Notes: generated by a model not told the origin, from the sequence alone. 64,000 bases of DNA from Nitrosopumilus sp. (GCA_965204345.1 OZ241981.1:608001-672000); one strand, 5' to 3'. Counted from the first letter of the stretch, positions 1 through 26,100 are shown. Numbers and translations are program-made.

Positions 1-939
1 GATAAGCTGTTTGACATCAACTTGAGAGGACTCTATCAAGTGTAATGCTTCTTTAGTATCAGCATCAGATGCAGCATAACTAGTTACCAGAGTAATTTCT
101 TTGGAATATATTTTACTCATATTCAAATCCAGTTTTGCACCTTTTGAAGGAACGCCAAACATCACCACAGAGCCGCCTTTTCGGACCATATCAAAGGCAT
201 CCTCTAATGCTTTGAGGCTGCTAGTAGCCACAATTGCCACATCCACACCCTGTCCATCAGTATTATCCAAAATCTTTTGTTTTCTGTTTTCATCCATAGA
301 GTTGATGGATTCAGTTATGTTGAAGCTTTTGGCAAATTCCAGTCTAAAATCATTAACATCAAAACAGAAGATTTTTGAGAATTTTTTAGCATGTGCCAAC
401 ATCACATGCATCATTCCAGTGGGACCAACCCCAAAAATGGCAGCAGAGTCATGTTCTTGGTAAGAGAATTTAGTCCAAGTTCGAACACAGCATGCCAATG
501 GTTCAATCATTGCAGCTTCCTCATAACTAAGGGAATCAGAAATTTTTAAGATGCCGCCATGAGAGACACTCCAAGAGGGAACAACATATTCTTCTGATAA
601 TCCGCAAGGATTTAGATTGGTTTGAGAATATTTTTGACACATTGTTTCGTTTCCATGGTTGCACAAATGACAATCATAGCAAGGAACATGATGGTGAGTA
701 AATACCCTATCGCCTTTTTTAAATTCAGTTACACCAGAACCCACGTCTAAAATAATTCCAGAAGGCTCATGGCCTAAACGCATTGATGATTTACCATATT
801 GACCAAAGACTTTTTCCAAATCAGAGCCACAGATTCCGCAAGCTTGCATCTGAACTAAAACATCACCTGCTTGCAGGGAGGGTTTGTCTGTTTCATCTAC
901 AGAAATTACAGATGGCCCTTTAACGGATGCGGTTTTCAT
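1..939 (-). CDS. Zn-dependent (MDR family) alcohol/threonine/sorbitol dehydrogenase-like protein, 3' end outside window
   Basis: Hand translation from ATG at 939 (MKTASVKGPS...): catalytic Zn motifs CGICGSD and GHE, structural Zn CYDCHLC...C, Rossmann FGVGPTG. Absent from the ORF track because it runs off the window. Confidence 0.9.
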   Translation of the reverse strand, partial: MKTASVKGPSVISVDETDKPSLQAGDVLVQMQACGICGSDLEKVFGQYGKSSMRLGHEPSGIILDVGSGVTEFKKGDRVFTHHHVPCYDCHLCNHGNETMCQKYSQTNLNPCGLSEEYVVPSWSVSHGGILKISDSLSYEEAAMIEPLACCVRTWTKFSYQEHDSAAIFGVGPTGMMHVMLAHAKKFSKIFCFDVNDFRLEFAKSFNITESINSMDENRKQKILDNTDGQGVDVAIVATSSLKALEDAFDMVRKGGSVVMFGVPSKGAKLDLNMSKIYSKEITLVTSYAASDADTKEALHLIESSQVDVKQLI

Positions 940-971: not shown

Positions 972-1265
972 TTATACGCCGAGGATTTTCTTTAGCATGA
1001 CTCTGTAGTCAACCTCACTTTTTTCACTTCCGGCTGCTGGCAATGCAAATACCAGAGTAGATTTTTCAGCCCTTAGGGCAGTTAATTCATCATTGATAGA
1101 TTCGGTAATATCATCACTTACCAGGATCAGACCGACATCAGAATCATCAGTTAGTGTTTTAATTTCTTGTAAAGCATTTTGTGGATTCTCAGAGATTTTT
1201 CCAGGTATGCCAGCTAATTGAAAGCTAGTTACAAAGGATTTACTGCCAATAGTGAATATTTTCAC
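972..1265 (-). CDS. atpF: A/V-type ATP synthase subunit F
   Basis: KIFTIGSKSFVTSFQLAGI...DVGLILV...LP...KKILGV matches subunit F. Likely start is GTG at 1265 (track ORF starts at 1310). Confidence 0.85.
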   Translation of the reverse strand: MKIFTIGSKSFVTSFQLAGIPGKISENPQNALQEIKTLTDDSDVGLILVSDDITESINDELTALRAEKSTLVFALPAAGSEKSEVDYRVMLKKILGV

Positions 1266-1652: not shown

Positions 1653-1653
1653 A

Positions 1654-1908: not shown

Positions 1909-2112
1909 AACTATTCATATAATTTCTAGTTATTAACACATTCTAATTAATAATTACAAGTCAGAGATCAGCCCAGAAAGAAACATTTGAAATTCATCAT
2001 CATTAAAAGTAATCGTTTCAAATTTATTTTCACTCCTAAAGGAAAATATCTTTCTAGTTTGATTAATCAGAAATGCCTGTAAAATAGCAAAGAATAACAA
2101 AAAAATAATAAT

Positions 2113-5100
2113 CTAGCCCAACGGAATCTCTACTGTCTGTGTCAGTGTTCCCTGCTCAACGCCGTTGGTGCTAACGCTGATTGCGTTGCCGCCCTGCTGG
2201 ATGCCTCTCAAGGAGTTGACCTGCTCATCAGTGTGTGTAAACTGTACAAAGACGTTCAGGTCATCATTGCTGTCTTCCCTGCCATACCTGTCTGGGAATG
2301 CTATGGTAGTCACGGTTTGTCCTGAGATTCCAAGTTCCTTTTCTGCAAACATGTCTGGTACTGACTGCAACACCATGTATTGCGTTAGTGTCTTACCGGT
2401 ATCCTCGTTTGTAAATTCAATGTTGGTATTTAGGAATTCTTTGAGCACGTCTGGCAGGTCAACCTGTGTTGATCTGTCGTTGATTTTCATGCCTGATTTT
2501 TGAGATACTGCCACGTTTGCATCCTCAGATGCAATTGCAATTTCAGCAGATGTTGGAACTATAGTCCTGCTTCCGTCTCCTGCAACAATCTCAATTGTGT
2601 CACCGCCCAAGAGAACGCCCCTCATGGAGTTGACCATATCATCAGAGGATGATATCTGCAAGAAGAGGTTTGCATTGTTGTTGCTCTCCTCTGAATCTGG
2701 CCTGTCAGTTAGTGCAACGGTGGTAACTGTCTGTCCGCTGACTCCCAGTACAACTAGGGCATATTTGTCAGGGTTTGATTGCAGTGTCTGGAAATCAGTG
2801 AGTTTCATACCAGTGTTATCATTTGTAATATCAGTAAAGTCAGCAAGGAACTTGCGGACTGGCTCAGGTGTTTGTACCGGGGCCAGGCCAGGTATCGGTA
2901 CTGTTGGGAGATCAGTCATGGTGTCAGTTGGCAAATCTGCTTTAGAAGAGGGCTGGTCAGGTGTTACAACTGCACTGCCACCGGCAATAACAGGTGAGGA
3001 TGACTCGTATGTTTTTACAGATACAGAGCCAGAACATTCGGTGATGTTAAGTGACTTTGAATCAGTGGATATTCCTCTTGATATAATATTTTCCACTTGT
3101 ACGTGTACAAATGACTCGTTTGGTGAGAGGTTTGCATCAAATGAAATTCTTCCAGGATAGGACTGGTCATCAGAGCGTTCTGCCGTGATTATGCCGGCGT
3201 TGGTTCTAAGTTTTACAAACAGATTGTCAGTTACAGGACCAGCTATGACATTGATTGTGTTTGCCTCGCAGACATCCCATTGTACGTCGTACAAAACAGC
3301 TCCAGAGACACTGCCTGCAATAGATGAGCTGCCAGATGGAAGGGAGGAGCTACCGCCGCCACCGCCACCGCCACCGCCACCGCCACCGCCACCGCCACCG
3401 CCACCGCGGCTACTAGAAGGTGTGGATGGTGTAGGGTCTACAGAACCTATAGAGAATGAGCCAAATGAGCTAAAGTGCGTGGTCCAGATGATCATATCAG
3501 AGCCGTCACGAACAAAACATGATTCCAGTGTAGTGCCAGCTTCAAGATTAGTATTGGCAGTAGCCTGATTGACAGGAACAAATGGACATACAACTAGTGG
3601 TCGTGACTCTACAACGCCATCAGCGTTTTCTCCTTGGAAGAAGGCACCATCACGGCTTGCTTGGTCAGGCAATAGTAGCCTGACTGCCTGATCAAATGTT
3701 AATCTAGTGTTGCCATCACCAACTGAGAATGCCAGTCCTATCTCATCATTTGAGGTTGGAGGAGTAGCAGCATTAGTAGAAAGAGATGGAACTGTAATGG
3801 TACCATCCCAGTCATCAGATGAGCCGCTTACAACTATACCTGCAGGATAAGTGACAGTTACTGTTTGAGAATCAGAGACAGCAGAAGTAACTTTAGCTGG
3901 AGAATCAGAGATTCTCACACTCTTTACTCCGTTTGCACTATCATCAGCAAATGTTGGAGCGGTATTAAATTTAAGCAGTTGTCCATCAGTGGCGATAATT
4001 GTTTCAGGTAATGTATCATATATTACATTGAGGGTGATCAAATTTGAAGATGGTATATAGGTTATTACGCCATCAACGCCTCCAAGAGGGATATCGGCCT
4101 CAATGGCATCTCCAGTAGTGTTGATGGTAACGGTAACTGAATTAGATGTCTCGTTGGGGTTGCCTGCTGAATCTGCTGCCACATTTGCATTTATTGATAC
4201 GGTCACTGTTCCGTCTGTAGAGCCCCGAGCCACATCAAAGGTGTATGTGCTGGCATCAACTGTTACAAAGTTGGTTGCTGCCGGAGCATCGCCGTTGGCA
4301 GTGCCAGTTACTGTAATGTCATCTAGGACAAAGTTTCTAACGTCCTCGCTAAAGGTTGCAGTAAATGTTACGGGATCATCACCGGTAGTGGTGCCATCGG
4401 GAGGCGTGATGGATACTGTTGGGTTTACCATGTCCACGGTAATAATATGTACAGCATCTGTGTTGTCCTCTACTACCGCACCCTCAGGTATGGTTACTGT
4501 CAGCTCACCCTCTGTGGCGATGCCGTGTGTTACTGTAAAGTCATATTGGGTACCACTAGTTCCAGTAAAAGTAGTTATCAGGCTATCAGATACTTCAGTT
4601 CCGTTAATTGTCACGACAATATCAGATTGCTCAAATCCTGTGACATCCTCGCTAAAGGTTGCAGTAAATGAGATGGCCTCAGAGTTGGTAGGATCAGATG
4701 CACCTGTGCTCAGGGATACGTATGGGACAGTGGTGTCTACGGTGACGGTAACTGGGGCAGATGCGGTGTTGGGGTTGCCTGCAAGATCTGTTGCTACGTC
4801 TGCTGCTATGGATGGAATTACGGTTCCGTCTGATGAGCCCCGAGCAACATCAAAGGTGTATGTGCGGGCATTAACTGTTGCAAAGTTGGATGCTATAGGA
4901 TTGGTGCCGTTTGCTGTGCCTGTTACTGTAATGTCTCCTAGTTCAAAGTTCTGAACATCCTTGCTAAATGTTACTGTAAATGGTACCGTATCAAGTCCGG
5001 TGCTGCTGCCAATAGATGAACTGACAGAGACAGTTGGGGCAATGGTGTCTATTGTAACGGTAATTTGAGCAGATGCCTCATTGGAGTTGCCTGCTGCATC

Positions 5101-8100
5101 TGTTGCCTTTAATGCATCTATGGATACGGTCACGGTTCCGTCTGTAGTGCCGCGGAGAACATCAAAGGTGTAGACACTGCCTGTTCCACCAAGGTTGGAT
5201 GCTACTGGAGTACCGCCGTTGGCAGTGCCAGTTACTGTAATGTCAGTTAGGTCAAAGTCCTCAACATCCTTGTTGAATGTTGCCGTAAATGGTATTGTAG
5301 CAAGGTTGGTGTTATCATCTGCAGTCGTAGCTACAGAGACTGTAAGGGGAACAGTGTCTATTGTGACGGTAACTGAATTAGATCCAGTGTTGAGGTTGCC
5401 TGCAAGGTCTGTTGTTACGTCTGCTGCAATGGATGAAATTACGGTTCCGTCTGTGGTGCCGCGAGCAACATCAAAGGTGTAGATACTTCCTTCACCATTA
5501 AGGTTGGTTACCTCAGGACTTCCGCCATTGGCAGTGCCAGTTACTGTAATGTCACCTAGCTCAAAGTTCTGGACATCCTCATTAAAGGTTGCCGTAAACG
5601 TTACTGGGTCATCGCTGGTGGTAGTACCATCGGCAGGTGTGATGGTTACAGTTGGGACTATTCTGTCTACTGTGAATGTAGTGGCAGTACTTGCTGTGTT
5701 ACCCTCTACTACCGCATTGGCAGGTATGGTTACTGCTAGCTGTCCTTCTGCGGTGATGCCGTGTGTTACTGTAAAGGTATAGTCAGCACCGCTTCCACCA
5801 AATTCAGATATCAGGCTGCCAGGTGTGGCGGGATTTCCGTCAATTGTCACTACAATGTCATCTGCGATAAATCCTGTGACATCACTGCCAAATGTTGCCG
5901 TAAATGGTATGGCCTCAGAGTTGGTAGGATCAGTTACATTAGTACTCAGGGATACGGTTGCAACATCCAGATAGTTTATTGTAAGATCTGCAGTCGTGTG
6001 CCTGTTTCCATCAGAGAAGGTTGCCTGTACTGTACATGTTGATGCACCAGCAAAAGCATTGATAGGCTCAAAGTCAAACTGTCCGTTTGGCAGGATGGCA
6101 GAGGTAAAGTCCGTACAATCACTAGATGTGGGGGCAGAGACTAGTGTCAGTGTCTGGGTATCTGTGTAATAATTGTTAATGTCAAGTGTAACCTTTCGGA
6201 GCTGGCTTGATAAGACATCAACTGTCAGCGGTGTTGTAGTACGTACTGGTGCAGCATCCAGTACGACAGATATGTTTACAGTGTAGGCACCGCCTGTGCT
6301 GGCACCAGTACCATCAGAGATGTCAAAGGAGAGCGTACATGTCTCAGCAGCTGAGGATACAAACCTGAACGTATCAGAGCCAGCTGGTGGCTGCTGCGTC
6401 AGGGTTCCAGTACAGTCATCTGATATATTGGTGTATGAAAGCGTATCATCGTCGGGGTCTGTAAAGTGATCATCTAGAGAGAATGTTGGAGGAGCTAATG
6501 TGGGGTGCTCTAGGGTTATAACGGGTTGTACTGCTGGAACCGGTGGCAAAGAGTTTGGAATAGTAGTGTCTATTGTGACGGTAACTGGGACAGATGCGGT
6601 GTTAGAGTTGTCTGCAAGATCTCTTGCCACATCTCCTGCAATTGATACGGTTACGGTTCCGTCTGTCGAGCCGCGAGCAACATCAAAGGTGTATACACTG
6701 CCGTCTCCAAGAAGGTTGGATGCTACTGGACTGCCGCCGTTGACAGTACCAGTTACTGTAATGTCAGCTAGGACAAAGTTCTCAACATCCTCACTAAAGG
6801 TTGCCGTAAATGTTACGGGGTCATCACCGGTGGTGGTACCATCGACAGGTGTGATGGTTACAGTTGGATCTATTCTGTCCACTGTAAGTGTATGAGTATT
6901 TGCTGTGTTGCCCTCTACTACCGCATCGTCAGGTATGGTTACTGTCAGCTGTCCTTCTGCGGCGATGCCGTGTGTTACTGTAAAGGTATAGTCAGCACCG
7001 CTTCCACTAAAGGCAGTTAACAGGCTATTAGCTGCTGGGGTTCCGTCAATTGCTACAACGATGTCAGATTGTACAAATCCTGTGACATCCTCGTCAAATG
7101 TTGCAGTAAATGAGATGGTCTCAGAGTTGGTAGGATCAGTAGCAGTTGTGTCCAAGGATACTGATGGGACAGTGCTGTCTACGGTGACAGTAACTGGGGC
7201 AGATGCGGTGTTGGAGTTGCCTGCAAGGTCTGTTGCCACATCTGCTGCAATGGATGCAATTACTGTTCCGTCAGAAGATATGCCTGCAACGTTAAAGGTG
7301 TATGTGCGGGCATCAACTGTTGCAAAGCCGGATGCTGTGAGGGTGCCGCCGTTTGCGGTACCAGTTACTGTAATGTCAGTTAGCTCAAAGTTCTCAACAT
7401 CCTCGCTAAATGTTGCCGTAAACGTTACTGGGTTATCGCTGGTGGTGGTGCCATCGACAGGCGTAATGGATACTGATGGTCTTATTCTGTCCACGGTAAG
7501 TGTACGAGTACTTGCCATGTTGCCCTCTGCTACCGCACCGTCAGGTATTGTTACTGTTAGTTCACCTTGTGTGGTGATGCCGTGTGTTACTGTAAAGGTA
7601 TAGTCAGCATCGCTTCCACTAAATCCAGATATCAGGCCAGATGTGTCAGTTCCGTTAATTGCCACGACAATGTCCTCCATGGTGAATTGTGTGACATCCT
7701 CGTCAAATGTTGCAGTAAATTCGATGGCCTCAGAGTTGGTAGGATCAGCAGCAGTTGTGTCCAGGGATACTGATAGGACAGTGGTGTCTATTGTAAATGT
7801 AGCAGTAAATGCCTCGTTGAAGTTGCCTGCAAGATCTCTTATTGTACCTGTATTTATTGACACGGTTACGATTCCGTCTGAGGAACCGCGAGCAACACTA
7901 AAGGTGTAGATACCCTCAGATATGCTAAAGTCGGATGCTACCGGATTGCCGCCGTTGGCAGAGCCTGTTACTGCAATGACATTTGGTATGCTAAAGACAT
8001 TGATCTCCTCGCTGAATGTTAAGGTAAATGGTATCGTGGCAGCAGTAGTGGTGGTGCCATCGGCAGGTACAAGTATTATGACTGGAGATATCCTGTCTAC

Positions 8101-11100
8101 TGTAAGTGCATAAACACTCTCTATGTTGTCCTCGTTGACCACGTTGGTAGGTATGGTTACTGTCAGCTGGCCTTCTGTGATTCCATGTGCGACTGTAAAG
8201 GTGTAGTCAGTACCACCACTGGTTCCCTCAAAGCCAGGTATCAATTCAGACGCAGTTGTGGTGATGGCGACTCCGTCAGCTGCCACAACGATGTCACCTC
8301 GGTCAAATCCGGTTACATCCTCGCTAAAGGTTACCGTAAATGGTATGACAGCAAGATTGGTGATTGGATTGGCAGTAGTACCTATAGATGCAGTCAGGCC
8401 AGGCAGATACTGTACGGTGACAGTAGTCTCAATCTGCCTGTTGCCATCGCTTATGGTAAATTGCACGGTACACTCATCTGTTGTGGAAAACTGATTCGTC
8501 GGGGTAAAGCTAAAGCTGTTTGGGGTAATGTCAGATATGATAGAAGTCGTGCAGTCAGAAGAGCTCTGGGTGTCACCTATAATTGACAAGACCTTGTTGT
8601 CATCATAAAAGTTATTGACGTCAATGTTTACCGTGCGGGATTCGTCTGGCTGTACCTGTATGGTCAGATCACCTAGAACGGGTGCCGGGTCTGCTACCAC
8701 ATTTAGGATTGCAGTGTATGGCCTGTCGGTGGTCGAATCCGTGCCGTCTGAGATGTCAAAGGAGAAAACACATTCTTCTGCTGTGACAGATCTAAAGAGG
8801 AGCATAGAGTCAAGGGACACCACAAAGATTCCCTGACAGGAGGTAATGATTTCTGTAAATGTCACCTCGTCTCCGTCTGGATCCACAAAGTGATCAGAGA
8901 GGAGGATAGGCTGATCCCTTAGTGCCGGATACTCCAGAGTTATGATGGGAGGTACAGCAGGAATCGTAGGCAGCAAGTTGGTGGAGGTACTGTCTATGGT
9001 GACAGTAACATGACGGGGCAATGCCTCGTTGGGGTTGCCAGCAAGGTCTGCTGCCACATCCTCATCTAATGATACGGTTACTGTTCCGTCTGAGGATATG
9101 TCTGCAACATCAAAGGTGTATGTGCTGGCATTAACTGTTGCAAAGTTGGATGCTGTCAGATTGGCGCCGTTTGCTGTGCCTGTTACTGTAATGTCTCCTA
9201 GTTCAAAGTTCTCAACGTCCTCGCTAAATGTTGCAGTAAATGGTATGGTGGCAAGGTTGGTGATGCTACCAGCAGTCGAGCCGACAAAGACTTGTGGGGC
9301 AATGAGGTCTATTGTGATGGTGGTAGGACTGGGGGATGCCGTGTTGCCCCCTTGTACCACACCGGCAGGTATGGATACTGTCAGCTGTCCTTCTGTGGTG
9401 ATGCCGTGTGTGACTGTAAAGTCGTATTGGGTACCACTAGTTTCAGTAAAGGCAGTTATCAGACTACCAGGTGTGGCGGTGTTTCCGTCAACTGTCACGA
9501 CAATGTCGCTTGCGATAAATCCTGTGACGTCACTGCTAAATGTTGCAGTAAATTGTATGGCCTCAGAGTTGGTAGGACCAGATGCAACTGTCCCCAGTGA
9601 TACTGATGGGATAGTAGCGTCTATGGTGACGGTAATTGGTGCAGATGCGGTGTTGAGGTTACCAACAAAGTCTGTTGCCACGCCTTCTCCAATTGATACG
9701 GTTACGGTTCCGTCTGAGGATATGTCTGCAACATCAAAGGTGTATGTGCTGGCATTAACTGTTACAAAATTGGATGCTGTGAGGGCGCCGCCGTTTGCGG
9801 TGCCTGCTACTGTAATGTCATCTAGGACAAAGTTCTCAACATCCTCGGTAAATCTTGCCGTAAATGGTACCGTATCAAGGTTGTTGATCATGTCTGCTGT
9901 TGTAGCTACAGAGACGATTGGGGCAGTGGTGTCTACTGTGACGGTAACTGGTGCAGATGCCGTGTTGAGGTTGCCTGCGGCATCTGTTGCCACATTTTCT
10001 GCAATTGACACGGTTACGGTTCCGTCTGAGGAACCGCGCACTACATCAAAGGTGTATTCAGCACCAGATCCAAGAAGGTTTGATGGTGCTGGTGTGCCGT
10101 CGTTGGCAGTACCCGTTACTGTAATGTCAGATAACACAAAGTCTGCAACTGCCTTGTTGAAGTTTACTGTAAATGGTATTGTAGTAAGATTGGTGTTGTC
10201 GTCTGTTGTTGTAGTTACAGATACTGTTAGGTCAGTGGTGTCTATGGTGACGGTAACTGGTGCAGATGCCGTGTTGAGGTTGCCTGCGGCATCTGTTGCT
10301 ACGTCTGCTGCAATTGATACAGTTACGGTTCCGTCTGAGGTTCCGCGTACTACATCAAAGGTGTATTGAGCACCAGATCCTGCAAGGTTGGATGCTGCTG
10401 GAGTGCCGTCGTTGGCAGTACCTTCTACGGTAATGTCAGATAGCTCAAAGTCTGCAACTGCCTTGTTGAAGTTTACTGTAAATGGTACCGTATCAAGGTT
10501 GGTGTTCTCGCCTGCAGTTGTAGTTACAGATACTGTTAGAGCTTCGGTGTCTATGGTGATGGTAATTGGTGTAGATGCGGTGTTGAGGTTGCCTGCGGCA
10601 TCTGTTGCCACATTTTCTGCAATTGATACGGTTACGGTTCCGTCTGAGGTTCCGCGTATTACATCAAAGGTATATTGGGTACCAGATCCAAGAAGGTTTG
10701 ATGCTGCTGGTGTGCCGTCGTTGGCAGTGCCAGTTACTGTAATGTCAGATAGCTCAAAGTCTGCAACTGCCTTGTTGAAGTTTACTGTAAATGGTATTGT
10801 AGTAAGATTGGTGTTGTCGTCTGCAGTTGTAGCTACAGATACTGTTAGGTCAGTGGTGTCTACTGTGACAGTAACTTGGGTAGATGCGGTGTTGGAGTTC
10901 TCTGCTGAGTCTACTGTTACACCTGCTGCAATTGATGTAATTACCGTTCCGTCAGAAGCTATGTCTGCAACATCAAAGGTGTATGTGCGAGAATCAACTG
11001 TCTGAATGTTGGTTACTGTGAGGATGCCGCCGTTGGCAGTACCTTCTACTGTAATGTCAGTTTCGGTAATTGCTTCAACATCCCTGCTAAAGGTTGCAGT

Positions 11101-14100
11101 AAATGTTATTGTATCAAAATTGGTGTTGGCACCTGCATTTGAACTCAGAGTGACTGTTGGGCGAACGGTGTCTATTGTGACGGTAACTGGTGCAGATGCC
11201 TCGTTGAGGTTGGCTGCAAGGTCTGTTGCCACGCCTGCTGCAATGGATGGAGATACGGTTCCGTCTGATGAGCCTCGAGCAACATTAAAGGTGTATGTGC
11301 GGGCATCAACTGCCACAAAGTCAGTTGCTGTGAGGGTGCCGTTGTTGGCAGTGCCTTCTACTGTAATGTCAGCTAGCACAAAGTTCTGGACATCCTCACT
11401 GAATGTTGCCCTAAACGTTACTGGGTCATCACTGATGACGGTGCCATCGGGAGGTGTAATGGTTACGGTTGGGGTAGTGATGTCTATTGTGACGATAACT
11501 GGTGCAGATGCCGTGTTGAGGTTACCTGCGGCATCTGTTGCCACATTTTCTGCAATTGATACTGTTACGGTTCCGTCTGAGGTTCCGCGTACTACATCAA
11601 AGGTGTATTCGGTACCAGATCCAAGAAGATTTGATGCTGCTGGGGCGCTACCGTTGACAGTACCCGTTACTGTAATGTCAGATAGCTCAAAGTCCTCAAC
11701 TGCCTTGTTGAAGGTTACTGTAAAGGGTACCGTAGCAAAGTTGGTGGTGTCGCCTGCAGTTGTAGCTACAGATACTGTTAGGTCAGTGGTGTCTATGGTG
11801 ACAGCGGCAGAACTTGGGGATGCAAGATTGGAGTTGCCTGCGGCATCTGTTGCCACACCTGCTGCAATTGATACGGTTACGGTGCCGTCTGAGGTTCCGC
11901 GCACTACATCAAAGGTGTATTCAGTACCAGATCCAAGAAGATTTGATGCTGCTGGAGCGCCGTCGTTGGCGGTGCCTTCTACGGTAATGTCAGATAGCAC
12001 AAAGTCCTCAACTGCCTTGTTGAAGGTTACTGTAAAGGGTACCGTAGCAAAGTTGGTGGTGTCGCCTGCAGTTGTAGCTACAGATACTGTTAGGTCAGTG
12101 GTGTCTATGGTGACAGCAGCAGAACTTGGGGATGCAAGATTGGAGTTGCCTGCGGCATCTGTTGCCACACCTGCTGCAATTGATACGGTTACGGTGCCGT
12201 CTGAGGTTCCGCGCACTACATCAAAGGTGTATTCAGTACCAGATCCAAGAAGATTTGATGCTGCTGGAGCGCCGTCGTTGGCGGTGCCTTCTACGGTAAT
12301 GTCAGATAGCACAAAGTCCTCAACTGCCTTGTTGAAGGTTACTGTAAATGGTATTGTATCAAGGTTAGTGTTATCGCCTGCAGTTGTAGCTACAGATACT
12401 GTTAGAGCTTCAGAGTCTACTGTAACGGTAACTTGTGCAGATGCCGTGTTGAGGTTGCCTGCGGCATCTGTTGCCACACCTGCTGCAATTGATACGGTTA
12501 CGGTGCCGTCTGAGGTTCCGCGCACTACATCAAAGGTGTATTCAGTACCAGATCCAAGAAGATTTGATGCTGCTGGAGCGCCGTCGTTGGCGGTGCCTTC
12601 TACGGTAATGTCAGATAGCACAAAGTCCTCAACTGCCTTGTTGAAGGTTACTGTAAATGGTATTGTATCAAGGTTAGTGTTATCGCCTGCAGTTGTAGCT
12701 ACAGATACTGTTAGAGCTTCAGAGTCTACTGTAACGGTAACTTGTGCAGATGCCGTGTTGAGGTTGCCTGCGGCATCTGTTGCCACATTTTCTGCAATTG
12801 ACACGGTTACGGTTCCGTCTGAGGAACCGCGTATTACATCAAAGGTGTATTCGGTACCAGATCCAAGAAGATTTGATGCTGCTGGAGCGCTACCGTTGAC
12901 AGTACCCGTTACTGTAATGTCAGATAGCACAAAGTCCTCAACTGCCTTGTTGAAGGTTACTGTAAAGGGTACCGTAGCAAGGTTAGTGTTGTCGCCTGCA
13001 GTTGTAGCTACAGATACTGTTAGGTCAGTGGTGTCTATGGTGACAGCAGCAGAACTTGGGGATGCAAGATTGGAGTTGCCTGCGGCATCTGTTGCCACAC
13101 CTGCTGCAATTGACACGGTTACGGTTCCGTCTGAGGTCCCGCGTATTACATCAAAGGTGTATTCGGTACCAGATCCTGCAAGGTTTGATGCTGCTGGAGT
13201 GCCGTCGTTGGCAGTGCCTTCTACGGTAATGTCAGATAGCTCAAAGTCCTCAACTGCCTTGTTGAAGGTTACTGTAAATGGTACCGTATCAAGGTTGGTG
13301 TTCTCGCCTGCAGTTGTATCTACAGATACTGTTAGAGCTTCAGAGTCTACTGTAACGGTAACTTGTGCAGATGCCGTGTTGAGGTTGCCTGCGGCATCTG
13401 TTGCCACATTTTCTGCAATTGATACGGTTACGGTTCCGTCTGAGGTCCCGCGCACTACATCAAAGGTATATTGGGTACCAGATCCTGCAAGGTTTGATGC
13501 TGCTGGAGTGCCGTCGTTGGCAGTGCCAGTTACTGTAATGTCAGATAACACAAAGTCTGCAACTGCCTTGTTGAAGTTTACTGTAAATGGTATTGTAGTA
13601 AGATTGGTGTTGTCGTCTGCAGTTGTAGCTACAGATACTGTTAGGTCAGTGGTGTCTACTGTGACAGTAACTTGGGTAGATGCGGTGTTGGAGTTCTCTG
13701 CTGAGTCTACTGTTACACCTGCTGCAATTGATGTAATTATCGTTCCGTCAGAAGCTATGTCTGCAACATCAAAGGTGTATGTGCGAGAATCAACTGTCTG
13801 AATGTTGGTTACTGTGAGGATGCCGCCGTTGGCAGTGCCTGTTACTGTAATGTCACCTTCTGTAATTGGATCAACGTCCCTGCTAAAGGTTGCAGTAAAT
13901 GTTATTGTATCAGAGTTGGTGCTGGCACCTGCATTTGAAGCCAGAGTGACTGTTGGGCGAACGGTGTCTATTGTGACAGTAACTGGAGCAGATGCCGTGT
14001 TGAGATTATCTGCAAGATCTTCTGCGACACCTGCTGCTATGGATGGAATTATGGTTCCATCTGATGAGCCGCGAGATACATCAAAGGTGTATGTGCGGGC

Positions 14101-17100
14101 ATTAACTGTTACAAAGTTGGCTGCTGTCGGATTGGTGCCGTTTGCGGTGCCTGTTACTGTAATGTCAGATAGGATAAAGTTCTGGACATCCTCACTGAAT
14201 GTTGCAGTAAATGTTACGGGGTCATCACTGGTGATGGTGCCATTGACAGGTGTGATGGTTACGGTTGGGACAGCAGTGTCTATTGTGACGGTAACTAAAT
14301 TAGATGCGGTGTTGGGGTTATTTGCAAGGTCTGCTGCCACGTCTGCTGCTATGGATGCAGTTACGGTTCCGTCTGTGGAGCCTCGAGATACATCAAAGGT
14401 GTATGTGCGGGCATTAACTGTTACAAAGTTGGCTGCTGTCGGATTGGTGCCGTTTGCGGTGCCTGTTACTGTAATGTCAGATAGGATAAAGTTCTGGACA
14501 TCCTCACTGAATGTTGCAGTAAACGTTACTGGGTCATCACTGGTGATGGTGCCATTGACAGGTGTGATGGTTACGGTTGGGACAGTGGTGTCTATTGTGA
14601 CGGTAACTAAATTAGATGCGGTGTTGGGGTTATTTGCAAGGTCTGCTGCCACGTCTGCTGCTATGGATGCAGTTACGGTTCCGTCTGTAGAGCCGCGAGC
14701 AACATCAAAGGTGTATGTGCGGGCATTAACTGTTACAAAGTTGGCTGCTGTCGGATTGGTGCCGTTTGCGGTGCCTGTTACTGTAATGTCAGATAGGATA
14801 AAGTTCTGGACATCCTCACTGAATGTTGCAGTAAACGTTACTGGGTCATCACTGGTGATGGTGCCATTGACAGGTGTGATGGTTACGGTTGGGACAGCAG
14901 TGTCTATTGTGACGGTAACTAAATTAGATGCGGTGTTGGGGTTATTTGCAAGGTCTGCTGCCACGTCTGCTGCTATGGATGCAGTTACGGTTCCGTCTGT
15001 GGAGCCTCGAGATACATCAAAGGTGTATGTGCGGGCATTAATGGTTACAAAGTTGGCTGCTGTCGGATTGGTGCCGTTTGCGCTGCCTGTTACTGTAATG
15101 TCAGATAGGATAAAGTTCTGGACATCCTCACTGAATGTTGCAGTAAACGTTACTGGGTCATCACTGGTGATGGTGCCATTGACAGGTTTGATGGTTACGG
15201 TTGGGACAGCAGTGTCTATTGTGACGGTAACTAAATTAGATGCGGTGTTGGGGTTATTTGCAAGATCTGCTGCCACGTCTGCTGCTATGGATGCAGTTAC
15301 GGTTCCGTCTGTAGAGCCTCGAGCAACATCAAAGGTGTATGTGCGGGCATCAATGGTTACAAAGTTGGCTGCTGTCGGATTGGTGCCGTTTGCGGTACCT
15401 GTTACTGTAATGTCAGATAGGATAAAGTTCTGGACATCCTCACTGAATGTTGCAGTAAATGTTACGGGGTCATCACTGGTGATGGTGCCATCGGCAGGTG
15501 TGATGGTTACGGTTGGATCTATTCTGTCCACTGTGAGTGTAGCGGCACTTGCTGTGTTGCCTCCTGCTACCACATCGGCAGGTATGGTTACTGTCAGTTG
15601 GCCTCCTGTGGCGATGCCGTGTGTTACTGTAAAGTCATATTGGGTACCACTAGTTCCAGTAAAGGCAGTTATCAGGCTATTAGATACTTCAGTTCCGTTA
15701 ATTGTCACGACAATATCAGATTGCTCAAATCCTGTGACATCCTCGTCAAAGGTTGCAGTAAAGTCGATGGTCTCAGAGTTAGTAGGATTAGATGCATCTG
15801 TGCTCAGTAATACGAATGGAACAGTAGTGTCTATTGTGACGGTAACTGGAGCAGATGCGGTGTTGGGGTTATTTGCAAGGTCTGCTGCCACGTCTGCTGC
15901 TATGGATGCAGTTACGGTTCCGTCTGTAGAGCCTCGAGCAACATCAAAGGTGTATGTGCGGGCATTAACTGTTACAAAGTTGGCTGCTGCAGGAGCGCCG
16001 CCGTTTGCGGTACCTGTTACTGTAATGTCAGATAGGATAAAGTTCTGGACATCCTCACTGAATGTTGCAGTAAATATTACTGGATCCTCGTCGGTGGTGG
16101 TACCATCGGCAGGTGTGATGGTTACGGTTGGGACAGTGGTGTCTATTGTGACGGTAACTGGAGCAGATGCGGTGTTGGGGTTATTTGCAAGGTCTGTTGC
16201 TACGTCTGCTGCAATGGATGGAATTACGGTTCCGTCTGTGGAGCCTCGAGATACATCAAAGGTGTATGTGCGGGCATCAACTGTTACAAAGTTGGCTGCT
16301 GTCGGATTGGTGCCGTTTGCGGTGCCTGTTACTGTAATGTCAGATAGGATAAAGTTCTGGACATCCTCACTGAATGTTGCAGTAAATGTTACGGGGTCAT
16401 CACTGGTGATGGTGCCATTGACAGGTGTGATGGTTACGGTTGGGACAGTGGTGTCTACGGTGACGGTAACTGGAGCAGATGCGGTGTTGGAGGTGCCTGC
16501 AAGGTTTGTTGCCACATCTGCTGCTATGGATGTAGTTACGGTTCCGTCTGTGGTGCCACGAGCAACATCAAAGGTGTATGTGCGGGCATCAACTGTTACA
16601 AAGTTGGATGCCACGGGACTGCCGCCGTTGGCAGTGCCAGTTACTGTAATGTCAGATAGGATAAAGTTCTGGACATCCTCACTGAATGTTGCAGTAAATG
16701 TTACCGTATCAGAGTTGGTGAAATCAATTGGAGTTGTAGTTACAGAGACTGATGGGACAGCAGTGTCTATTGTGACGGTAACTGGAGCAGATGCGGTGTT
16801 GGGGTTGCCTGCAAGGTCTGTTGCGACATTTGCAGTAATTGATGGAATTACGGTTCCGTCTGTAAAGCCGCGAGCAACATCAAAGGTATATGTGCGGGCA
16901 TCAACTGTTACAAAGTTGGCTGCTGCCGGATTGGTGCCGTTTGCAGTGCCAGTTATCGTAATGTCACCTAGTTCAAAGTTCTGGACATCCTCGCTAAATG
17001 TTGCAGTAAATGTTACTGGGTCATCACTAGTGATGGTGCCATCGGCAGGCGTAATGGATACTGTGGGGTTTGCCCTGTCCACCGTAATACGAGATCCATC

Positions 17101-20100
17101 ACTAGCACTGCCACCATCAGCTGCATCAACAGGTATGACTACTACTAGCAGGCTTTCTGTGAGGCCGTGTGTGACTGTAAAGGTGTATTGGGCTCCCTCT
17201 CCCGCAAAGGAAGTTATCAGGCCAGGTGTGGTGGTGGTTTCATCAATACGCACTATAATATCATCCTGGTCAAATCCCGTAACAGCTCTGCCAAATGTTA
17301 CCGTAAATTCGATGGCCTCAAGGTTGGTGAGATCGCCTACATCCGTAGTCAGAGATACGGATATACGATCCAGATAGTTTATTGTAAACTCTGCGGGTGT
17401 AAAGTAGTTTCCATCAGAGAAGGTTGTCTGTACTGTACATGTTAGCCCGCCAGTAGAGTCTTCTAAAACCTCAAATGTAAACACGCCACTGTCTGGTGAG
17501 GTAGATCTAAATGTACAGTCATCAGAGGTTATAGTATCAACTATTGACAGTGACTTGTCATCTGTGTAATAGTCGTTAATGTCAATTGTAACTGTCCTAG
17601 ACTGGTCTGATAGGACGTCAATTACCAGAGGCGTTGCAGTTCGTACGGGTGCGGGATTTTCTGTGACTACCAGCTCAAAAGAGTATGGCTGCCCCGTGCT
17701 TTGCGTCGTGCCGTCTGAAATGTCAAAGGATACCACACATGTAGTGCCGACATCATTTGCGACGGGATCAATTTGCATGTTATGATTGTCTAGTAGTGTA
17801 ACATCCAAGGTGACACCAGCAGCGCAGCTTGAGAAATTATTGAAAGACAGTGTTTCAAATTCAGGATCCACAAAGTGATCACGCAGTGAAATTTGCGGAA
17901 CAGTTCGGTTTGGATATTCGACTGTTGCAGATGGTACGGAGGCAGGTATTGGTGGCAGTAGGTTAGTTACGGTAGATAACACACGGTATGAGGATGTAAA
18001 CTGTTCTGTTGCAGAGCCGTCTGTCACATCAAAGGTAAAGCTACAGTCTTCAGGATATGTCACCGCGTTGTTTGGCGTTGCAGTAACGGTAAAGGCACCC
18101 GTCGGATTTACAGTTACGCTAGATGACTGGCATGCATTGTTATCTAGGGTATAGGACAGGGTATCACCGTCCGGATCTGCAATGTTGGTAGCTAGGTTGC
18201 CTGTGTGTGTCTCATCAATATTAAATGAAAAACTAGGTGGTACAGTTCCAGCAGGAACACGATTGACATCTGTGACAGTCAGTGTAAATGACCCAGTAGT
18301 GGTATCAGCACCATCATCTAGCTGATATTCTACCTGAATTTCAGTAGAGAGGTCAAAGTCATCCCTTATGCTGGTGCCAGTTGGGGGATGAGCCACTACA
18401 TCAAAAGGTATGTTGCCTGTGACTAGTCCATCCAAATTTATGTTCAGATAACTATGACCGGTACTTATGAAACCGACATCAGCGGGGAAAAAGTTAGCAG
18501 GTAATGATACCTGATGTGAAAGAGATTCACCCTCTGCAACAGTTACGGTTGGAAGGCTAAGATAGTTTATTGTAATCTCTGTATCTGTGTGCCTGTTTCC
18601 ATCAGAGAAGGTTGTCTGTACTGTACATGTTGATGCACTAGCAAAAGCACCTAGGGGTACAAATTCAAACTGTCCATTTGACCTAGTGATAGAGTTAAAA
18701 TCTGTACAGTCATCAGATGTGGGATCAGAGACCAGTGTCAGTGTCGTGGCATCAGTATAATAGTCGTTAATGTCAAGTATAACATTTCGGGGCTGGTCTG
18801 CTGGGACATCAACTGTCAGGGGTGTTGCAGTACGTACGGGTGCGGCATCCAGTATCACAGATATGTTTACAGTGTAGGTGCCGCCAGTGCTGGCAATAGT
18901 GCCATCAGAGATGTCAAAGGAGAGCGTACATGTCTCAGCAGCTGAGGATACAAACCTGAACGTATTAGAGCCAGCTGGTGGCTGCTGCGTCAGGGTTCCA
19001 GTACAGTCATCTGATGGATTGGTGTACGATAGCGTATCACCTTCGGGGTCTGTAAAGTGGTCATCAAGTGAGAACTCTTGGTGTGTAGCCAGTACAGGGT
19101 GCTGTAGGGTTATGCCAGGTGTTACAGCAGGAACTGGTGGCAGTGTGTTGGTAGTTATGGTAACTGTAACTGAATTAGATGCGGCGTTGGGGTTGCCTGC
19201 AAGGTCTGCTGCCACGCCTGCTGCTATTGATGCAGTTACGGTGCCGTCTGTCGAGCCTCGAGCTACATCAAAGGTGTATGTGCGGGCATCAACTGTTGCA
19301 AAGTTGGATGCTGCTGGAGCACCGCCGTTGGCAGAGCCTGTTATCGTAATGTCACCTAGTTCAAAGTTCTGGACATTCTCGCCAAATGTTGCAGTAAATG
19401 TTACTGAGTCATCACGAGTGGTGGTGCCATCGGCAGGTGTAATGGTTACAGAGGGGTTTATCCTGTCCACTGTCAGTGCAGCAGTGGCACTTGCTGTGTT
19501 GCCCTCTGCTACCACATTGGGAGGTATTCTTACTGTTAGCTGACCTTCTGTGGCGATTCCGTGTGTGACTGTAAAGTCGTATTGGGTACCACTAGTTCCA
19601 GTAAAGGCAGTTATCAGGCTATTAGGTGCTGAGGTTCCGTTAATTGCCACAACGATATCAGAGCGCTCAAATCCTGTGACATCCTCGTCAAAGGTTGCAG
19701 TAAAGTCGATGGTCTCAGAGTTGGTGGGATCAGTTGCATCTGTGCTCAGAGATACGGATCGGATGTCTATGGTGATGGTAACTGGAACAGATGCCATATT
19801 GGGGTTGCCTGCTGAATCTACTGCAACATTTGCTGCAATTGACACGATTACTGTTCCGTCTGTAGAGCCCCGAGCAACATCAAAGGTGTAGACACTGCCT
19901 TCTCCATTAAGGTTGGATGCTACCGGATTGCCGCCGTTTGCAGTGCCTGTTACTGTAATGTCTTCCAGCTCAAAGTCCTCAACATCCTCGGTAAATGTTG
20001 CCGTAAATGGTACCGTATCAAGTCCAGTGCTACTGCCTGCAGATGAACTGACAGAGACAGTTGGGGCAAGGGTTTCTATTATGACAATAGCGGAACTAGA

Positions 20101-23100
20101 TGATGCCTCGTTGGGGTTGCCTGCTGAATCTACTGCCACATCTGCTGCAATCGACACGATTACTGTTCCGTCTGTAAAGCCCCGAGCAACATCAAAGGTG
20201 TAGATACTGCCTTCTCCATCAAGGTTGGATGCTACCGGATTGCCGCCGTTTGCAGTGCCTGTTACTGTAATGTCTTCCAGCTCAAAGTTCTCAACGTCCT
20301 CGCTAAATGTTGCCGTAAATGGTATCGTATCAAGGTTGTTGAGAATGTCTGCTGTTGTAGTTACAGAGACGGTTGGGGCAATGGTTTCTATTGTGACGGT
20401 AACTGGGGCAGATGCGGCGTTGGGGTTGCCTGCAAGGTCTGCTGCCACGCCTGTTGCTATGGATGGAATTACGGTTCCGTCTGTGGTGCCGCGAGCAACA
20501 TCAAAGGTGTATGTGCGGGCATCAACTGTTACAAAGTTGTCTGCTGCAGGACTGCCGCCGTTTGCAGTGCCTGTTACTGTAATGTCAGATAGGATAAAGT
20601 TCTGGACATCCTCACTGAATGTTGCCGTAAATGTTACTGGGTCATCACTGGTGGCGGTGCCATCGGCAGGCGTAATGGATACGGATGGCCTTATCATGTC
20701 CACTGTAATAGTATGTACAGCATCTGTATTGCCCTCAATGGTTACACCATCAGGTATTGTTGCTGTTAGCTGACCTTCTGTAGTTATGCCGTGTGTGACT
20801 GTAAAGGTGTATTCGGCTCCATCTCCAGTAAAGGCAGTTATCAGATCAGATGTGGTGGTTCCGTTAATTGCCACGACAATATCTGATTGCTCAAATCCTG
20901 TGACATCCTCATCAAAAGTTGCTGTAAATTCGATAATCTCAGAGTTTGTGGGATCAGTTGCATCTGTGCTCAGAGATACAGACGGGATGCTAGGGTCTAT
21001 GGTGACGGTAGCTGGGATAGATGCCTCGTTGGGATTGCCTGCTGAATCTACTGCCACATCTGCTGCAATTGACACGATTACTGTTCCGTCTGTAGAGCCC
21101 CGAGCAACATCAAAGGTGTAGATACTGCCTTCTCCATCAAGGTTGGATGCTACCGGATTGCCGCCGTTTGCAGTGCCTGTTACTGTAATGTCTTCCAGCT
21201 CAAAGTCCTCAACATCCTCGGTAAATGTTGCCGTAAATGGTACCGTATCAGCGTTGGTGCTACTTCCTGCAGATGAACTGACAGAGACAGTTGGGGCAAG
21301 GGTGTCTATTGTGACAATAGCGGAACTAGATGATGCCTCGTTGGGATTGCCTGCTGAATCTACTGCCACATCTGCTGCAATTGACACGATTACTGTTCCG
21401 TCTGTAGAGCCCCGAGCAACATCAAAGGTGTAGATACTGCCTTCTCCATCAAGGTTGGATGCTACCGGATTGCCGCCGTTTGCAGTGCCTGTTACTGTAA
21501 TGTCTTCCAGCTCAAAGTCCTCAACGTCCTCGCTAAATGTTGCCGTAAATGGTACCGTATCAGCGTTGGTGCTACTTCCTGCAGATGAACTGACAGAGAC
21601 AGTTGGGGCAAGGGTGTCTATTGTGACAATAGCGGAACTAGATGATGCCTCGTTGGGATTGCCTGCTGAATCTACTGCCACATCTGCTGCAATTGACACG
21701 ATTACTGTTCCGTCTGTAGAGCCCCGAGCAACATCAAAGGTGTAGATACTGCCTTCTCCATCAAGGTTGGATGCTACCGGATTGCCGCCGTTTGCAGTGC
21801 CTGTTACTGTAATGTCTTCCAGCTCAAAGTTCTCAACGTCCTCGCTAAATGTTGCCGTAAATGGTATCGTATCAAGGTTGTTGAGAATGTCTGCTGTTGT
21901 AGTTACAGAGACGGTTGGGATAATGCTTTCTATTGTGACGGTAACTGGGGCAGATGCGGTGTTGGAGTTGCCTGCAAGGTCTGCTGCCACGCCTGTTGCT
22001 ATGGATGCAATTACGGTTCCGTCTGTAGTGCCACGAGCAACATCAAAGGTGTATGTGCGGGCATTAACTGTTACAAAGTTGTCTGCTGTTGGAGCACCGC
22101 CATTTGCAGTGCCTGTTACTGTAATGTCTTCCAAGCCAAAGTTCTCAACGTCCTCGTTAAATGTTGCAGTAAACGTTACTGGGTCATCACTAGTGATGGT
22201 GCCATCGACAGGCGTAATGGATACGGATGGCTTTATCCGGTCCACGGTGATAGTGACGGTATCCCCAGTGTTACCGCCGTCGACCACATCAGTAGGTATT
22301 GTTACTGTAAGCACACCTTCTGTGATGCCATGTATGACTGTAAAGGTGTAATCGGAGCCAGGTTGTCCATTAACGGTAGGTATAAGACCAAGTGGGGCGC
22401 GGACTCCGTCAATTGTCACGACAATATCAGACGAGACAAATCCTGTGACAACACTACTAAATATTGCCGTAAATGGTATGGCCTCAAGAGTGGTGAGATC
22501 TCCTGCAACTGTATCAAGGGATACGGATGGGGCGCTGCTGGTATCTATGGTGACAGTAATTGGAATAGATGCGTGGTTTGGGCTGCCAGCAAGGTCTGTT
22601 GCGACATTTGCTGCAATTGATACGGTCACTGTTCCGTCTGTAGAGCCCCGAGCAACATCAAAGGTGTAGACACTGCCTTCTCCATCAAAGTTGGATGCTA
22701 CCGGATTGCCGCCGTTGGCAGTGCCTGTTACTGTAATGTCTTCCAGTTCAAAGTTCTCAACGTCCTCGGTAAATGTTGCCGTAAATGGTATGGTAGAAAG
22801 AGAGGTACTATCAGATGCAATTGTACTCAGAGATACGCCTGGCAAACGGTTGTTTGTAATAAGTGTAACTGAATTAGATGCGGTGTTGGGGTTGCCAGCT
22901 GAATCTGCTGCCACATCTGCTGCAATTGACACAGTTAGGACCGTATCCAAATTTTCAGTCAGAACACTAAAGAAGTATGTGTGATCATCATGCACCTCAA
23001 AATTGATTACAGTTAGATTCTCGCTGTTGGTAGTACCTGTTACTGTAATATCTTCCAGCTCAAAGTTCTGGACATCCTCGCTAAAGATTACCGTAAATGG

Positions 23101-26100
23101 TATAGGGTTCGTGCTTGTAGGAGAGGAGACTAGGGGGTGTGTAATGTGTGGAAATGGGCCTGTACGATCTACTGTAACAGATACATCATTAGATTGCAAA
23201 TTAACGTTGCCTGCAAGGTCTGCTGCCACATCTGCTGCAATTGACACGGTTACTGTTCCGTCTGATGAGCCCCGAGCAACATCAAAGGTGTAGACACTGC
23301 CTTCTCCATCAAAGTTGGATGCTACCGGATTGCCGCCGTTGGCAGTTCCTGTTACTGTAATGTCTTCCAGTTCAAAGTTCTGGACATCTTCATCAAAAGT
23401 TACTGTAAATGGTACGGTCTCAGCGTTGGTAAGTGTGGATGCAGTAGTTGTGATGGTTGGAGTTGGGCGTATGAGGTCGACTCTAACAGTTACTTCAGAA
23501 GATCCAGTATTACCGTTATCTGCCGCATCAAATGCTACATTTTGCGGTAAGGAATCACTTAGAACACCACTAACCTCACTGTACATGATATCAAAGGCGT
23601 ATGTGCGGGCATCAATTTGTTGAATGTTGGTCGCCTGACTGCCGGCTAGTATAAAGGAAGTCTCACCGAATCTCTGGACATCCTCGCTAAATTCTACTGT
23701 AAATGTTATTGTATCAGTGTTGACAGTCTCGGGGGCGTGCAAGGTTGCCGTTGGTCTCTGAGTATCAATCTCAACTGTGATCTCGTTGGATGGATCAACG
23801 TCAGCACCACCAAAAAGGGTGCTTGGCTGTAGGGATGCAGTTACGGTTCCATCAGAGGATCCGCGTACAACATCAAAGGTAGCTGTGTGGTCATCAATTT
23901 CCGTATAGCCAGATAGTGCCGGACTGCCGTCATTGGCAGTGCCCGTTACGATAATATTATAATCAAATAAGTTATCTGCGATAGTGGCACCAACCTCCTC
24001 ATTAAATGTTATTGTAAATGGTATGGTGGTAAGTTTGGTGATTGGGTTGGCAGTTGTGCTCAGGGTTACTATTGGGATAGGTTCAGTGGTAGAAAATGAG
24101 CCAAATGAGCTAAAGTGTGTGGTCCAGATTATCATATCAGATCCTGCACGAGTAAAACAGGATTCCAGCGCGCTGCCAGCTGCAAGATTAGTATTTGCAG
24201 TAGCCTGATTGACAGGAACAAACGAGCACTCAGTTAGCGGTCGTGATACCACAAGTCCATCAGCATCTTCTCCTGAGAAAAAGGCACCATCCTGCCCTGC
24301 CTGGCCAGGCAACAGTAACCTGACTGCCTGATCAAATGTCAATCTAGTGGTGCCATCACCTACTGAGAATACAAGTCCTGTCACATCATTGTCCGGACTT
24401 GGTGGAGCAGCAGTAGAGACAGATGGAACAGTTATGGTGCCTGCCCAGTCATCAGATGAGCCGCTTACGATTATGCCGTCCGGATAACTAACAGATACTG
24501 TTGCAGAAGAGACATCAGAAGTGATATTTACAGCAGAATCAGAGACTCTCACGCTCTTGACTCCTCCCTGATCATCAAATGTTGGGGCACCATTAAAGTC
24601 AAGCATCTGGCCACCAATAGCGGTAATAGTGTCAGGTAGTGTGTTAGATATGACGTTGAGGATACTCAAATTAGAAGATGGTGTAAATGTTACTCCGCCA
24701 TCATCGCTTCCGACTGGGACATTGATCTCAACTCCGATTCCGGTAATCTCGTTGGTAAAGGTAGACGTGAATGTGGTAATATCATCAGGTGGTGATGATA
24801 CAGATGGCAAGATATCAATTTGAATGGTGTTATCCCCCTTTTTTAGCAGTCCAGAATTGACTTTGATATCGTAATTTGCTTTTACGTCCTGAGCAAGCGG
24901 GTCAGATGATGAGCTGTATCCATAACCATAAGGACCGGTGCCCAAACCGCCATAGCCGCCACTTAGCATATTGGTAATGCCATTAAAGTTCAATGCCACA
25001 ATTTTACCCTTAACGTCTGCTGTCTGTCCAAAGTTGGCAGCAAGGGCATTTGAGAGACGGTTGCCAAACAAATCAAAGAATGCAACGACCTCATCAGAGT
25101 CACCGGGGTTGAGGACCACTCTGAGGACGGAGGGATCATCAGGAGAGATTTCGGGATTGAATGCAGAGCCTGGCAGAACCAGGGATAGCTGGCCTGCACT
25201 GCCCATCACGGTGATGCGGTTGTTGTTGCTGCTGCCAACAAATAAATCATGAATGACAAAGCCGACATCATCTATTACAACAGTGACATCGCCAGATGGA
25301 GTTACTCTGGTAATTGATGAGCCGCCAGCTACGACATAGTCTCCGTTTGAGGCAATCTTGACGGCGAGAGGATCTGCATTATCATTAGTTATGCCAGTTG
25401 CAATAACAGTTACAGTACCACCTGCATCTACTTGGTACAGGGTGCCACCGGTTCCAGCATTAGAAACATAAACATAGCTGCCAGTTGCTGACTCTACAAC
25501 ATCAAATGCATTGCCCTGTGGTGTATTAGTATTAGAGTTAACTGTAACATAGTTGCCTGCACCATCAACTATCATATCAGTTATGCCAGTAGCAGTATCT
25601 TCAAGTTCAGTTACAGTGCCATCCGGACTTACCTGGGATATGACACCATCAGATGTTGCTACAACAAGATTGCCAGTACCGCCAGGCTGATTTGCAACTG
25701 CAATTATATTTGGAATATCTGCAATATCAGACTCTGTGCCGCTTGCACTTAGTCCAATCAGCTTGCCATTGCCATTATCAGCAATAACATAGTCTCCGTT
25801 TTGATCAACTGCAAAATCAGTGGCAGAGGAAATATTGGTAGATGTACCTACAAGACTTGTCAGAGTTGCAGGAGTGAGTGGCAAAGTCAGGCCATCATTG
25901 GTGGCAGGATCACTAATCCTAAGCTCTATTGACAGTATGTCATCAATATCGGCAAGCACACCGTTGGTAAAATCGACAAAAATTTCATTATCAGTAAGGG
26001 ATATGGTTACAGCATCAATTCCAGGATATGGCGAAAAGAGCACGGCAAATATGACTATCGCTACTGCTAGTGCTCCAAATTCCCGTTTAGACTTTGTCCT

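Follow-up and report, generated by a model that had tools for sequence, protein, structure and literature searches.

Self-cutting domains of the MAIN type (Microbial Autoproteolysis INducing) have been described in bacteria and archaea, with Bacillus subtilis YfkN as the prototype (Brogan & Rudner, bioRxiv, May 2026, 10.64898/2026.05.12.724683). According to the main text of this preprint, Edman sequencing placed the cleavage of the YfkN MAIN domain between the F and the S of an HFS motif. Replacing S by A stopped the cutting, and replacing S by T brought it back. The fragments co-purified and co-eluted, and denaturants freed the ectodomain from cells. MAIN domains of several other species were also cut, one of them of the Thr type (T770A mutant). 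The layout given there is a signal peptide, ectodomains, MAIN and an anchor, and in the proposed role the cut leaves the fragments bound until force frees the ectodomain. Here we describe a giant open reading frame (ORF) from the ammonia-oxidising archaeon Nitrosopumilus sp. (GCA_965204345.1, OZ241981.1:608001-672000; this whole stretch of 64,000 nucleotides is called the window, and positions are counted from its first letter). Its product carries two copies of a domain that is very probably related to MAIN, one at each end of a very long stalk of Big_12 repeats.

Other self-cutting domains also offer points of comparison. ZU5, GPS and Nup98 were united in one superfamily by Zhang et al. 2012 (PMC3482391). 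In the same source, a sequence-based prediction holds that ZU5/GPS-like self-processing is general among large surface proteins of bacteria that bear adhesion modules. The present case differs from that prediction, which as worded there covers bacteria, mainly RHS toxins that have an N-terminal domain, and which names a CxH thiol motif instead of H-x-S/T. PIDD has two ZU5 domains, with cuts given at Ser-446 and Ser-588 (PMC3210808, PMC3482391), and is therefore a precedent for two self-cuts per chain. The domain described here is like PIDD ZU5 and the FIIND of NLRP1 and CARD8 in its superfamily fold and in its predicted cut at HFS, which matches their HFS or SFS cut. PIDD, NLRP1 and CARD8 are, unlike the giant protein, cytosolic animal signalling proteins with adjacent domains, for which no mechanical role has been proposed. 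Unlike the GAIN/GPS of adhesion G-protein-coupled receptors (latrophilin-1 4DLQ, BAI3 4DLO, CD97, GPR56), the domain has no helical GAIN_A, no seven-transmembrane region and no Pfam GPS/GAIN match. SEA of mucins and SEAL of RsgI follow the same logic in the account of the MAIN preprint (10.64898/2026.05.12.724683): a self-cut in an inter-strand turn, a sheet that holds the fragments, and separation by pulling. Their fold and motif are unrelated.

With MAIN, the locus shares a GAIN_B-like beta-sandwich, presumably extracytoplasmic, and an H-hydrophobic-S/T motif at the turn ahead of the last strand. As in MAIN proteins, the domain closes off a large adhesion-type ectodomain on its C-terminal side, and a probable signal peptide was read by eye and hydropathy. 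Unlike the MAIN layout, it has two domains per protein, ~6,900 aa apart, a poly-Gly linker after the domain and no known anchor. Two, multiple or tandem MAIN domains per protein, and the string 'Nitroso', go unmentioned in the main text of the preprint, as distinct from its supplementary tables. A literature search for a giant archaeal protein with a pair of these domains gave no prior description, and only the MAIN preprint was relevant. What had already been described in 2026 is the domain type; new are the double joint around a giant stalk, its archaeal host and its multiplication in one genome. We consider it likely that window 3451-4080 is the C-proximal of two self-cleaving MAIN-type domains in a secreted archaeal Big_12-repeat protein.

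A preliminary description, made from the sequence, had placed a second homologous copy of a domain at 3450-4110, where it closes the repeat region before the poly-Gly linker. These limits agree with the domain limits found here. Local alignment of aa ~430-684 with aa ~7303-7566 scored 776 (BLOSUM62), and all four motifs that had been quoted were common to both copies. The first copy is called N-type and the second C-type. Over 229 ungapped codons, protein identity was 69.0% and DNA identity 77.1%; synonymous divergence (dS) was 0.53, and the ratio of nonsynonymous to synonymous divergence (dN/dS) was 0.38. On these values, the two copies are real, old duplicates under selection, and not a product of chance or an assembly repeat. 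The giant protein contained exactly two HFS triplets, at aa 670-672 and 7550-7552, and the mapping of the latter to nt 3477-3469 was confirmed. SGSSDDW also occurred twice, at aa 554 and 7433, and both copies ended in IIWTTHFSSFGSFS.

The fold was modelled with AlphaFold2 from a 63-row domain alignment, which also served for the conservation counts. The model was an all-beta sandwich with one 7-residue helix (predicted local distance difference test, pLDDT, 89.3; predicted template modelling score, pTM, 0.87). A model made without the alignment had a pLDDT of 32.9 and was discarded. The last two strands were 206-214 and 216-220, which places F214/S215 (= F7551/S7552; a slash between residues marks a predicted cut throughout) at the turn. 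Foldseek returned nothing at E<=1e-3; its best row was the GAIN domain of BAI3 (4dlo_B) at E 7e-3, and the next were ankyrin ZU5 and CD97 GAIN. In a second structural comparison, the top 15 rows were all ZU5 or GAIN. Identity in the structural alignments with GAIN chains was 4-12%. N-terminal chains of cleaved proteins stopped opposite model residue 214 (= F7551). One of these was the chain of latrophilin-1 (4dlq_A, 609..837), which is presumably cut after Leu-837. The chains of Gpr126, GPR110, GPR56, GPR97 and LPHN3 stopped at the same place. So did that of NLRP1 (6x6c_E, 1082..1212), for which Ser-1213 is given as the nucleophile (PMC3210808).

Neither Pfam (E<=0.1) nor NCBIfam placed a family on either copy, ZU5 (PF00791) and GPS/GAIN included. 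The best ESM Atlas clusters for the domain were unnamed, and the nearest named one was ZU5 (score 0.86), which is a lead only. We are highly confident that the domain is of the MAIN/GAIN/ZU5 kind. It was filed as MAIN-type by fold, motif, motif position and protein context, and set beside YfkN by description. It stands outside the Pfam GPS/GAIN and ZU5 families, yet probably works like them.

Some further searches gave only chance matches or no link. Phmmer of the domain against the PDB sequences matched only VP4 (E 0.19), and a 25-row domain-only profile matched histone and ice-binding entries in the PDB at E of at least 0.05, with no GAIN/ZU5 among them. The same profile, used to look for homologous proteins, returned six without source names and yielded no connection to YfkN or other named MAIN proteins.

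An exhaustive phmmer search with the domain gave 820 relatives at E<=1e-3, 52 of them at E<=1e-10, and the best 150 of the 820 were examined. Local re-searching of these 150 yielded 153 domain matches, of which 152 ran to the domain end (the 153rd, P0151, was short). H-x-S/T was kept in 152/152, as HFT (134), HFS (16), HAS (1, P0005) and HMT (1, P0065). Relatives that keep the domain and lose His or Ser, which the preliminary description had named as counter-evidence, were absent from this set. In the 63-row alignment, W210, T211 and H213 were invariant, F214 was present in 62/63 rows, and position 215 was T in 54 and S in 9. The W210-215 region was the best-conserved stretch of the domain. 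Cys7513 and Cys7536 were both present in 53/63 rows, both missing in 7/63 and found alone in 3/63; this co-variation across relatives suggests a Cys7513-Cys7536 disulfide.

The same counts bear on a reading without any cut. The two copies could have a structural or binding role without cleavage, like the ZU5 domains of ankyrin and UNC5; they would then cap the repeat array and use HFS for folding only. We regard this as improbable. It is His together with Ser/Thr, not Phe alone, that all end-reaching matches kept, and position 215 was always S or T. In addition, the bacterial kin were cut in every mutant-tested case that the main text of the preprint reports (10.64898/2026.05.12.724683).

Domain content was scanned in 20/150 relatives, which were mostly large bacterial surface proteins with SLH (8/20), cadherin-like, leucine-rich repeat, immunoglobulin (Ig) or beta-helix domains. 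The preprint gives a similar picture of the proteins that carry MAIN. A run of at least five Gly lay no more than 40 aa downstream of the domain in 42/150 relatives, and 80/150 had a low-complexity tail. Poly-Gly followed all 11 close C-type copies in the Nitrosopumilus genome. A poly-Gly or Gly/Ser-rich linker directly past the joint thus recurs across the family, and the word 'glycine' is absent from the main text of the MAIN preprint. Two full domain copies were found outside this genome in P0014, P0035 and P0079 (3/150), so the double-copy layout is rare and not unique.

A second motif was observed in part of the family. The pattern H[FL][TS]x[FY][AQ][VIL], typically HFTKFAV, was present in 20/150 relatives (for example P0007, P0017, P0021, P0036, P0072, P0076 and P0094). 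In many Bacillota SLH proteins it lay ~145 aa past the first joint, with the SLH domains directly behind it. The region ahead of the motif had a weak Pfam ZU5 match in P0017 (E 6e-4). Here, another self-cutting domain of greater divergence may be present.

The layout of the giant ORF is given in Table 1. 'Head' and 'base' are labels only and do not imply polarity. At the position equivalent to its TTG start, the paralogues have ATG. Its G+C content is 0.45-0.49, against 0.35-0.44 in the flanks. Residues 1-38 probably form a Sec signal peptide with an IDA/V site, and may alternatively be an uncleaved signal anchor. They hold the only hydrophobic 19-mer of the whole 8,003-aa protein in the hydropathy window, with none after aa 38.

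Table 1 Features of the giant ORF and of a further domain-bearing ORF in the window.
Feature	Amino acids	Position (nt)	Strand	Remarks
Giant ORF	1-8003	2113..26124	-	8,003 aa; TTG start; stop codon 2113-2115
Probable signal peptide	1-38	26011..26124	-	basic n-region, 15-residue hydrophobic core, SPYPGIDA/VT; by eye and hydropathy window
Head	39-469	24718..26010	-	NHL/SGL-like beta-propeller region (aa ~80-320) and ~150-aa pre-joint module; weak Pfam
MAIN/GAIN-like domain, copy 1 (N-type)	~470-678	24091..24717	-	
H670-F671-S672	670-672	24109..24117	-	predicted scissile bond F671/S672
Stalk	679-7348	4081..24090	-	Ig-like repeats (Big_12), among them cadherin-like and further Ig modules
MAIN/GAIN-like domain, copy 2 (C-type)	7349-7558	3451..4080	-	stretch flagged in the preliminary description
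H7550-F7551-S7552	7550-7552	3469..3477	-	predicted scissile bond F7551/S7552; turn between last two model strands
Linker	7559-7591	3352..3450	-	Pro/Ser/Thr stretch, then 18 Gly
Base	7592-8003	2116..3351	-	412 aa; ends EIPLG; conserved, without hydrophobic segment
CHRD-domain ORF		54320-59116	-	1,598 aa; domain ~55403-56008; HLS 55418-55426

The Pfam matches of the head were below the cut-off (NHL E 0.004, SGL E 0.0016). The head was 95% identical to that of paralogue B00, and B04, B05, B37, P0152 and P0004 shared just aa ~320-470 of it. The ~150-aa pre-joint module precedes every N-type joint. The stalk matched Big_12 (Pfam PF19078) above the cut-off in all three thirds, with E from 8e-63 to 1e-113, and 37 Big_12 stretches passed alone (10 + 20 + 7 by thirds). 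Weak Cadherin_5, Big_5 and Big_9 matches were also present. The two F/S bonds are 6,880 aa apart. Downstream of the N-type copy comes the stalk, and downstream of the C-type copy come poly-Gly and a base without a known anchor family. The 18-Gly run (aa 7574-7591, nt 3352-3405) begins 22 residues past S7552.

For the base, there was no Pfam or NCBIfam match, and the best ESM Atlas score (0.75) was too low for use. A known anchor was recognised at neither end of the protein by Pfam, NCBIfam, ESM Atlas or hydropathy, with no sortase signal or SLH. The base was common to 9 ORFs of the genome. Its identity was 80-93% in 8 paralogues and fell to 72% in P0152 and to 46% in P0004; 3/40 congeners had weak partial matches only. 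On the opposite strand of the giant gene, long open frames of 446, 205, 931 and 1,191 aa were seen at window 9029-17377 (+). These are most likely by-products of the skewed repetitive composition of the giant gene, and not genes.

If the two domains are self-cleaving, each would form a beta-sandwich in which a tight turn with W-T-x-H-F-S joins the last two strands. His would activate the Ser hydroxyl, Ser would attack the F-S peptide bond in an N-to-O acyl shift, and the ester would be hydrolysed. The chain would be cut at F671/S672 and F7551/S7552. The strand SSFGSFS past each cut would stay hydrogen-bonded within the sandwich, and for this reason chains 39-671, 672-7551 and 7552-8003 would remain one filament until tension extracts a strand. 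Together with the poly-Gly linker and the base, the C-type joint would reproduce the canonical order of ectodomain, MAIN, linker and anchor. Immediately below the head, the N-type joint would provide another latent break point. By homology of fold and motif, the giant protein is probably cleaved, with both copies cut. Whether force release is also the purpose of the joints seems to us evenly balanced.

The preliminary description had proposed two cuts giving head (1-671), stalk (672-7551) and base (7552-8003), with two break points for shedding or detachment. Fold, motif position and the MAIN precedent argue for this three-part division. The start of the head is shifted to aa 39, because aa 1-38 look like a cleavable signal peptide. 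The break points would be latent ones: no free fragments would arise, and the pieces would be held by SSFGSFS until pulled.

The genome comprises 2.12 Mb in 9 contigs, is 99.7% complete and has an archaeal amoA. It contained 17 domain copies in 13 ORFs, which amount to 54,741 aa or ~7.7% of the genome. Four ORFs had two copies, one after the head and one before the poly-Gly, and measured 8,450, 8,011 (this gene), 5,823 and 5,329 aa from stop to stop. Seven ORFs (6,168, 6,055, 2,694, 2,690, 2,559, 2,273 and 2,046 aa) had a C-type copy only, and these single-joint paralogues had classical AHA/A signal peptides. A mini-paralogue of 1,039 aa (C1:1445808-1448924, +) combined a signal peptide and the pre-joint module with an N-type joint, a single Big_12 repeat, poly-Gly and a base. 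The minimal form, with pre-joint module, joint, poly-Gly and base, was also found in P0004 (864 aa) and P0152 (1,027 aa). The mini-paralogue, similar to these two from other sources, may be near the ancestral form; its copy was 72-76% identical to both N-type and C-type. The copy in the CHRD-domain ORF was more distant, with 21-25% identity to the other copies; the family profile matched it at E 1e-28 (hmmsearch). This copy ended in VIWTSHLSQFGSW, followed by a Gly-rich stretch.

WTTHFSSFGSF was kept in 16/16 close copies of the genome. The N-type copies of the two-joint ORFs were 82-96% identical to each other and 64-73% to the C-type, and the 11 C-type copies formed a clade (support 88/94). 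The split between the N and C positions therefore predates the paralogue expansion, and both have been retained. Sixty further genomes from this genus and order were compared at E<=1e-5. Only 3/60 had a match to the domain, at 26-34% identity, and the family is nearly absent from these relatives. Bracketing of a stalk by two copies, for which the preliminary description had suggested a survey, was seen in four paralogues here, and two full copies in 3/150 relatives; the domain itself was detected in few related genomes, and weakly.

A second type of C-terminal end was observed, with a Cys-x-Cys loop (CGPGTQL..GECVP) and then an amphipathic hydrophobic tail, GFFAAIQDFFSSLFGFA. It was present at C1:382971-401474, 1894613-1912777, 14290-30210 and 1704573-1711391, and a similar one at window 54320-59116. 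This end may be an alternative anchor or sorting signal. One 5,307-aa ORF with the Cys-x-Cys end had no detectable joint domain.

The two joint types might also have different jobs. The C-type would then be a release joint above an anchor, and the N-type a maturation cut that frees the filament from a signal anchor or a pro-domain-like head, with the N-terminal fragment left on the cell. The protein's sole hydrophobic segment is N-terminal, as this reading would have it. N-type and C-type copies form separate, long-kept groups, and B37, P0004 and P0152 have the same pre-joint module ahead of a single joint, which also speak for it. Against it, SPYPGIDA/VT looks by eye like an ordinary signal-peptidase site, and the single-joint paralogues with AHA/A signal peptides carry the C-type joint only. 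We therefore hold a division of labour of this kind to be unlikely. Very improbable is an assembly artefact of a repetitive gene, or a very recent functionless recombination: the gene is rich in repeats, and some parts of the paralogues reach 99% identity, but the copies differ at 23% of nucleotides (dS 0.53), the same layout stands in four separate ORFs on the 2.04-Mb contig, and P0003, from another source, has an N-type copy and then Big_12.

Two self-cleaving MAIN-type domains on one secreted protein remain the reading that we prefer, and several points weigh against it. There was no sequence-level link to Pfam ZU5/GPS or to any solved GAIN/ZU5 chain. For the C-type copy, the order 'MAIN then anchor' is an assumption, because no anchor was recognised in the base. 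Two serial joints bear the same load, and the benefit of a second one is not obvious. Finally, the 150 relatives studied are those of the 820 that are nearest to the query.

A further proposal builds on the two cuts and is tentative. The protein would be a non-covalent filament of three pieces with two serial force-gated joints, which would allow staged release of either the head alone or the head with the 6,880-aa stalk. The 13 sheddable tethers of the genome would be central to the way in which the archaeon holds and leaves particles or the matrix of a host. Bolder still, paralogues might in principle exchange heads, stalks and bases with one another, because 16/16 close copies share the inserted strand SSFGSF(S/T).

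Environmental sequencing runs were compared with the locus. At least half of the sampled words of window 3445-4113 were found in eight runs from three studies, and three of these runs were labelled sponge metagenome. Five RNA-library runs had smaller shares. The presence of near-identical DNA in sponge-labelled runs is consistent with attached life. RNA-library contigs from three runs of one study fell on 25-27 of the 30 bins of window 2113-4200, and thus on much of the base and of the C-type joint; two X9 contigs, with one mismatch each, matched 3928-4200 and 2113-2235. Neither these contigs nor the uncovered poly-Gly bins give a basis for a claim of expression, since contigs cannot show transcription, the libraries may contain DNA, and paralogues that are 77-99% identical confound placement.

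GAIN-like self-cutting joints outside animals have been recognised only recently, and the tests so far concern bacterial proteins with one joint beside a wall anchor. A two-joint protein from an archaeon would reveal whether the mechanism also operates there. It would also be a natural case of two identical mechanical fuses in series on a very long Ig-repeat stalk. The 13-fold multiplication in this genome, with sampled relatives that are without the design, points to a lineage-specific mode of attachment and detachment.

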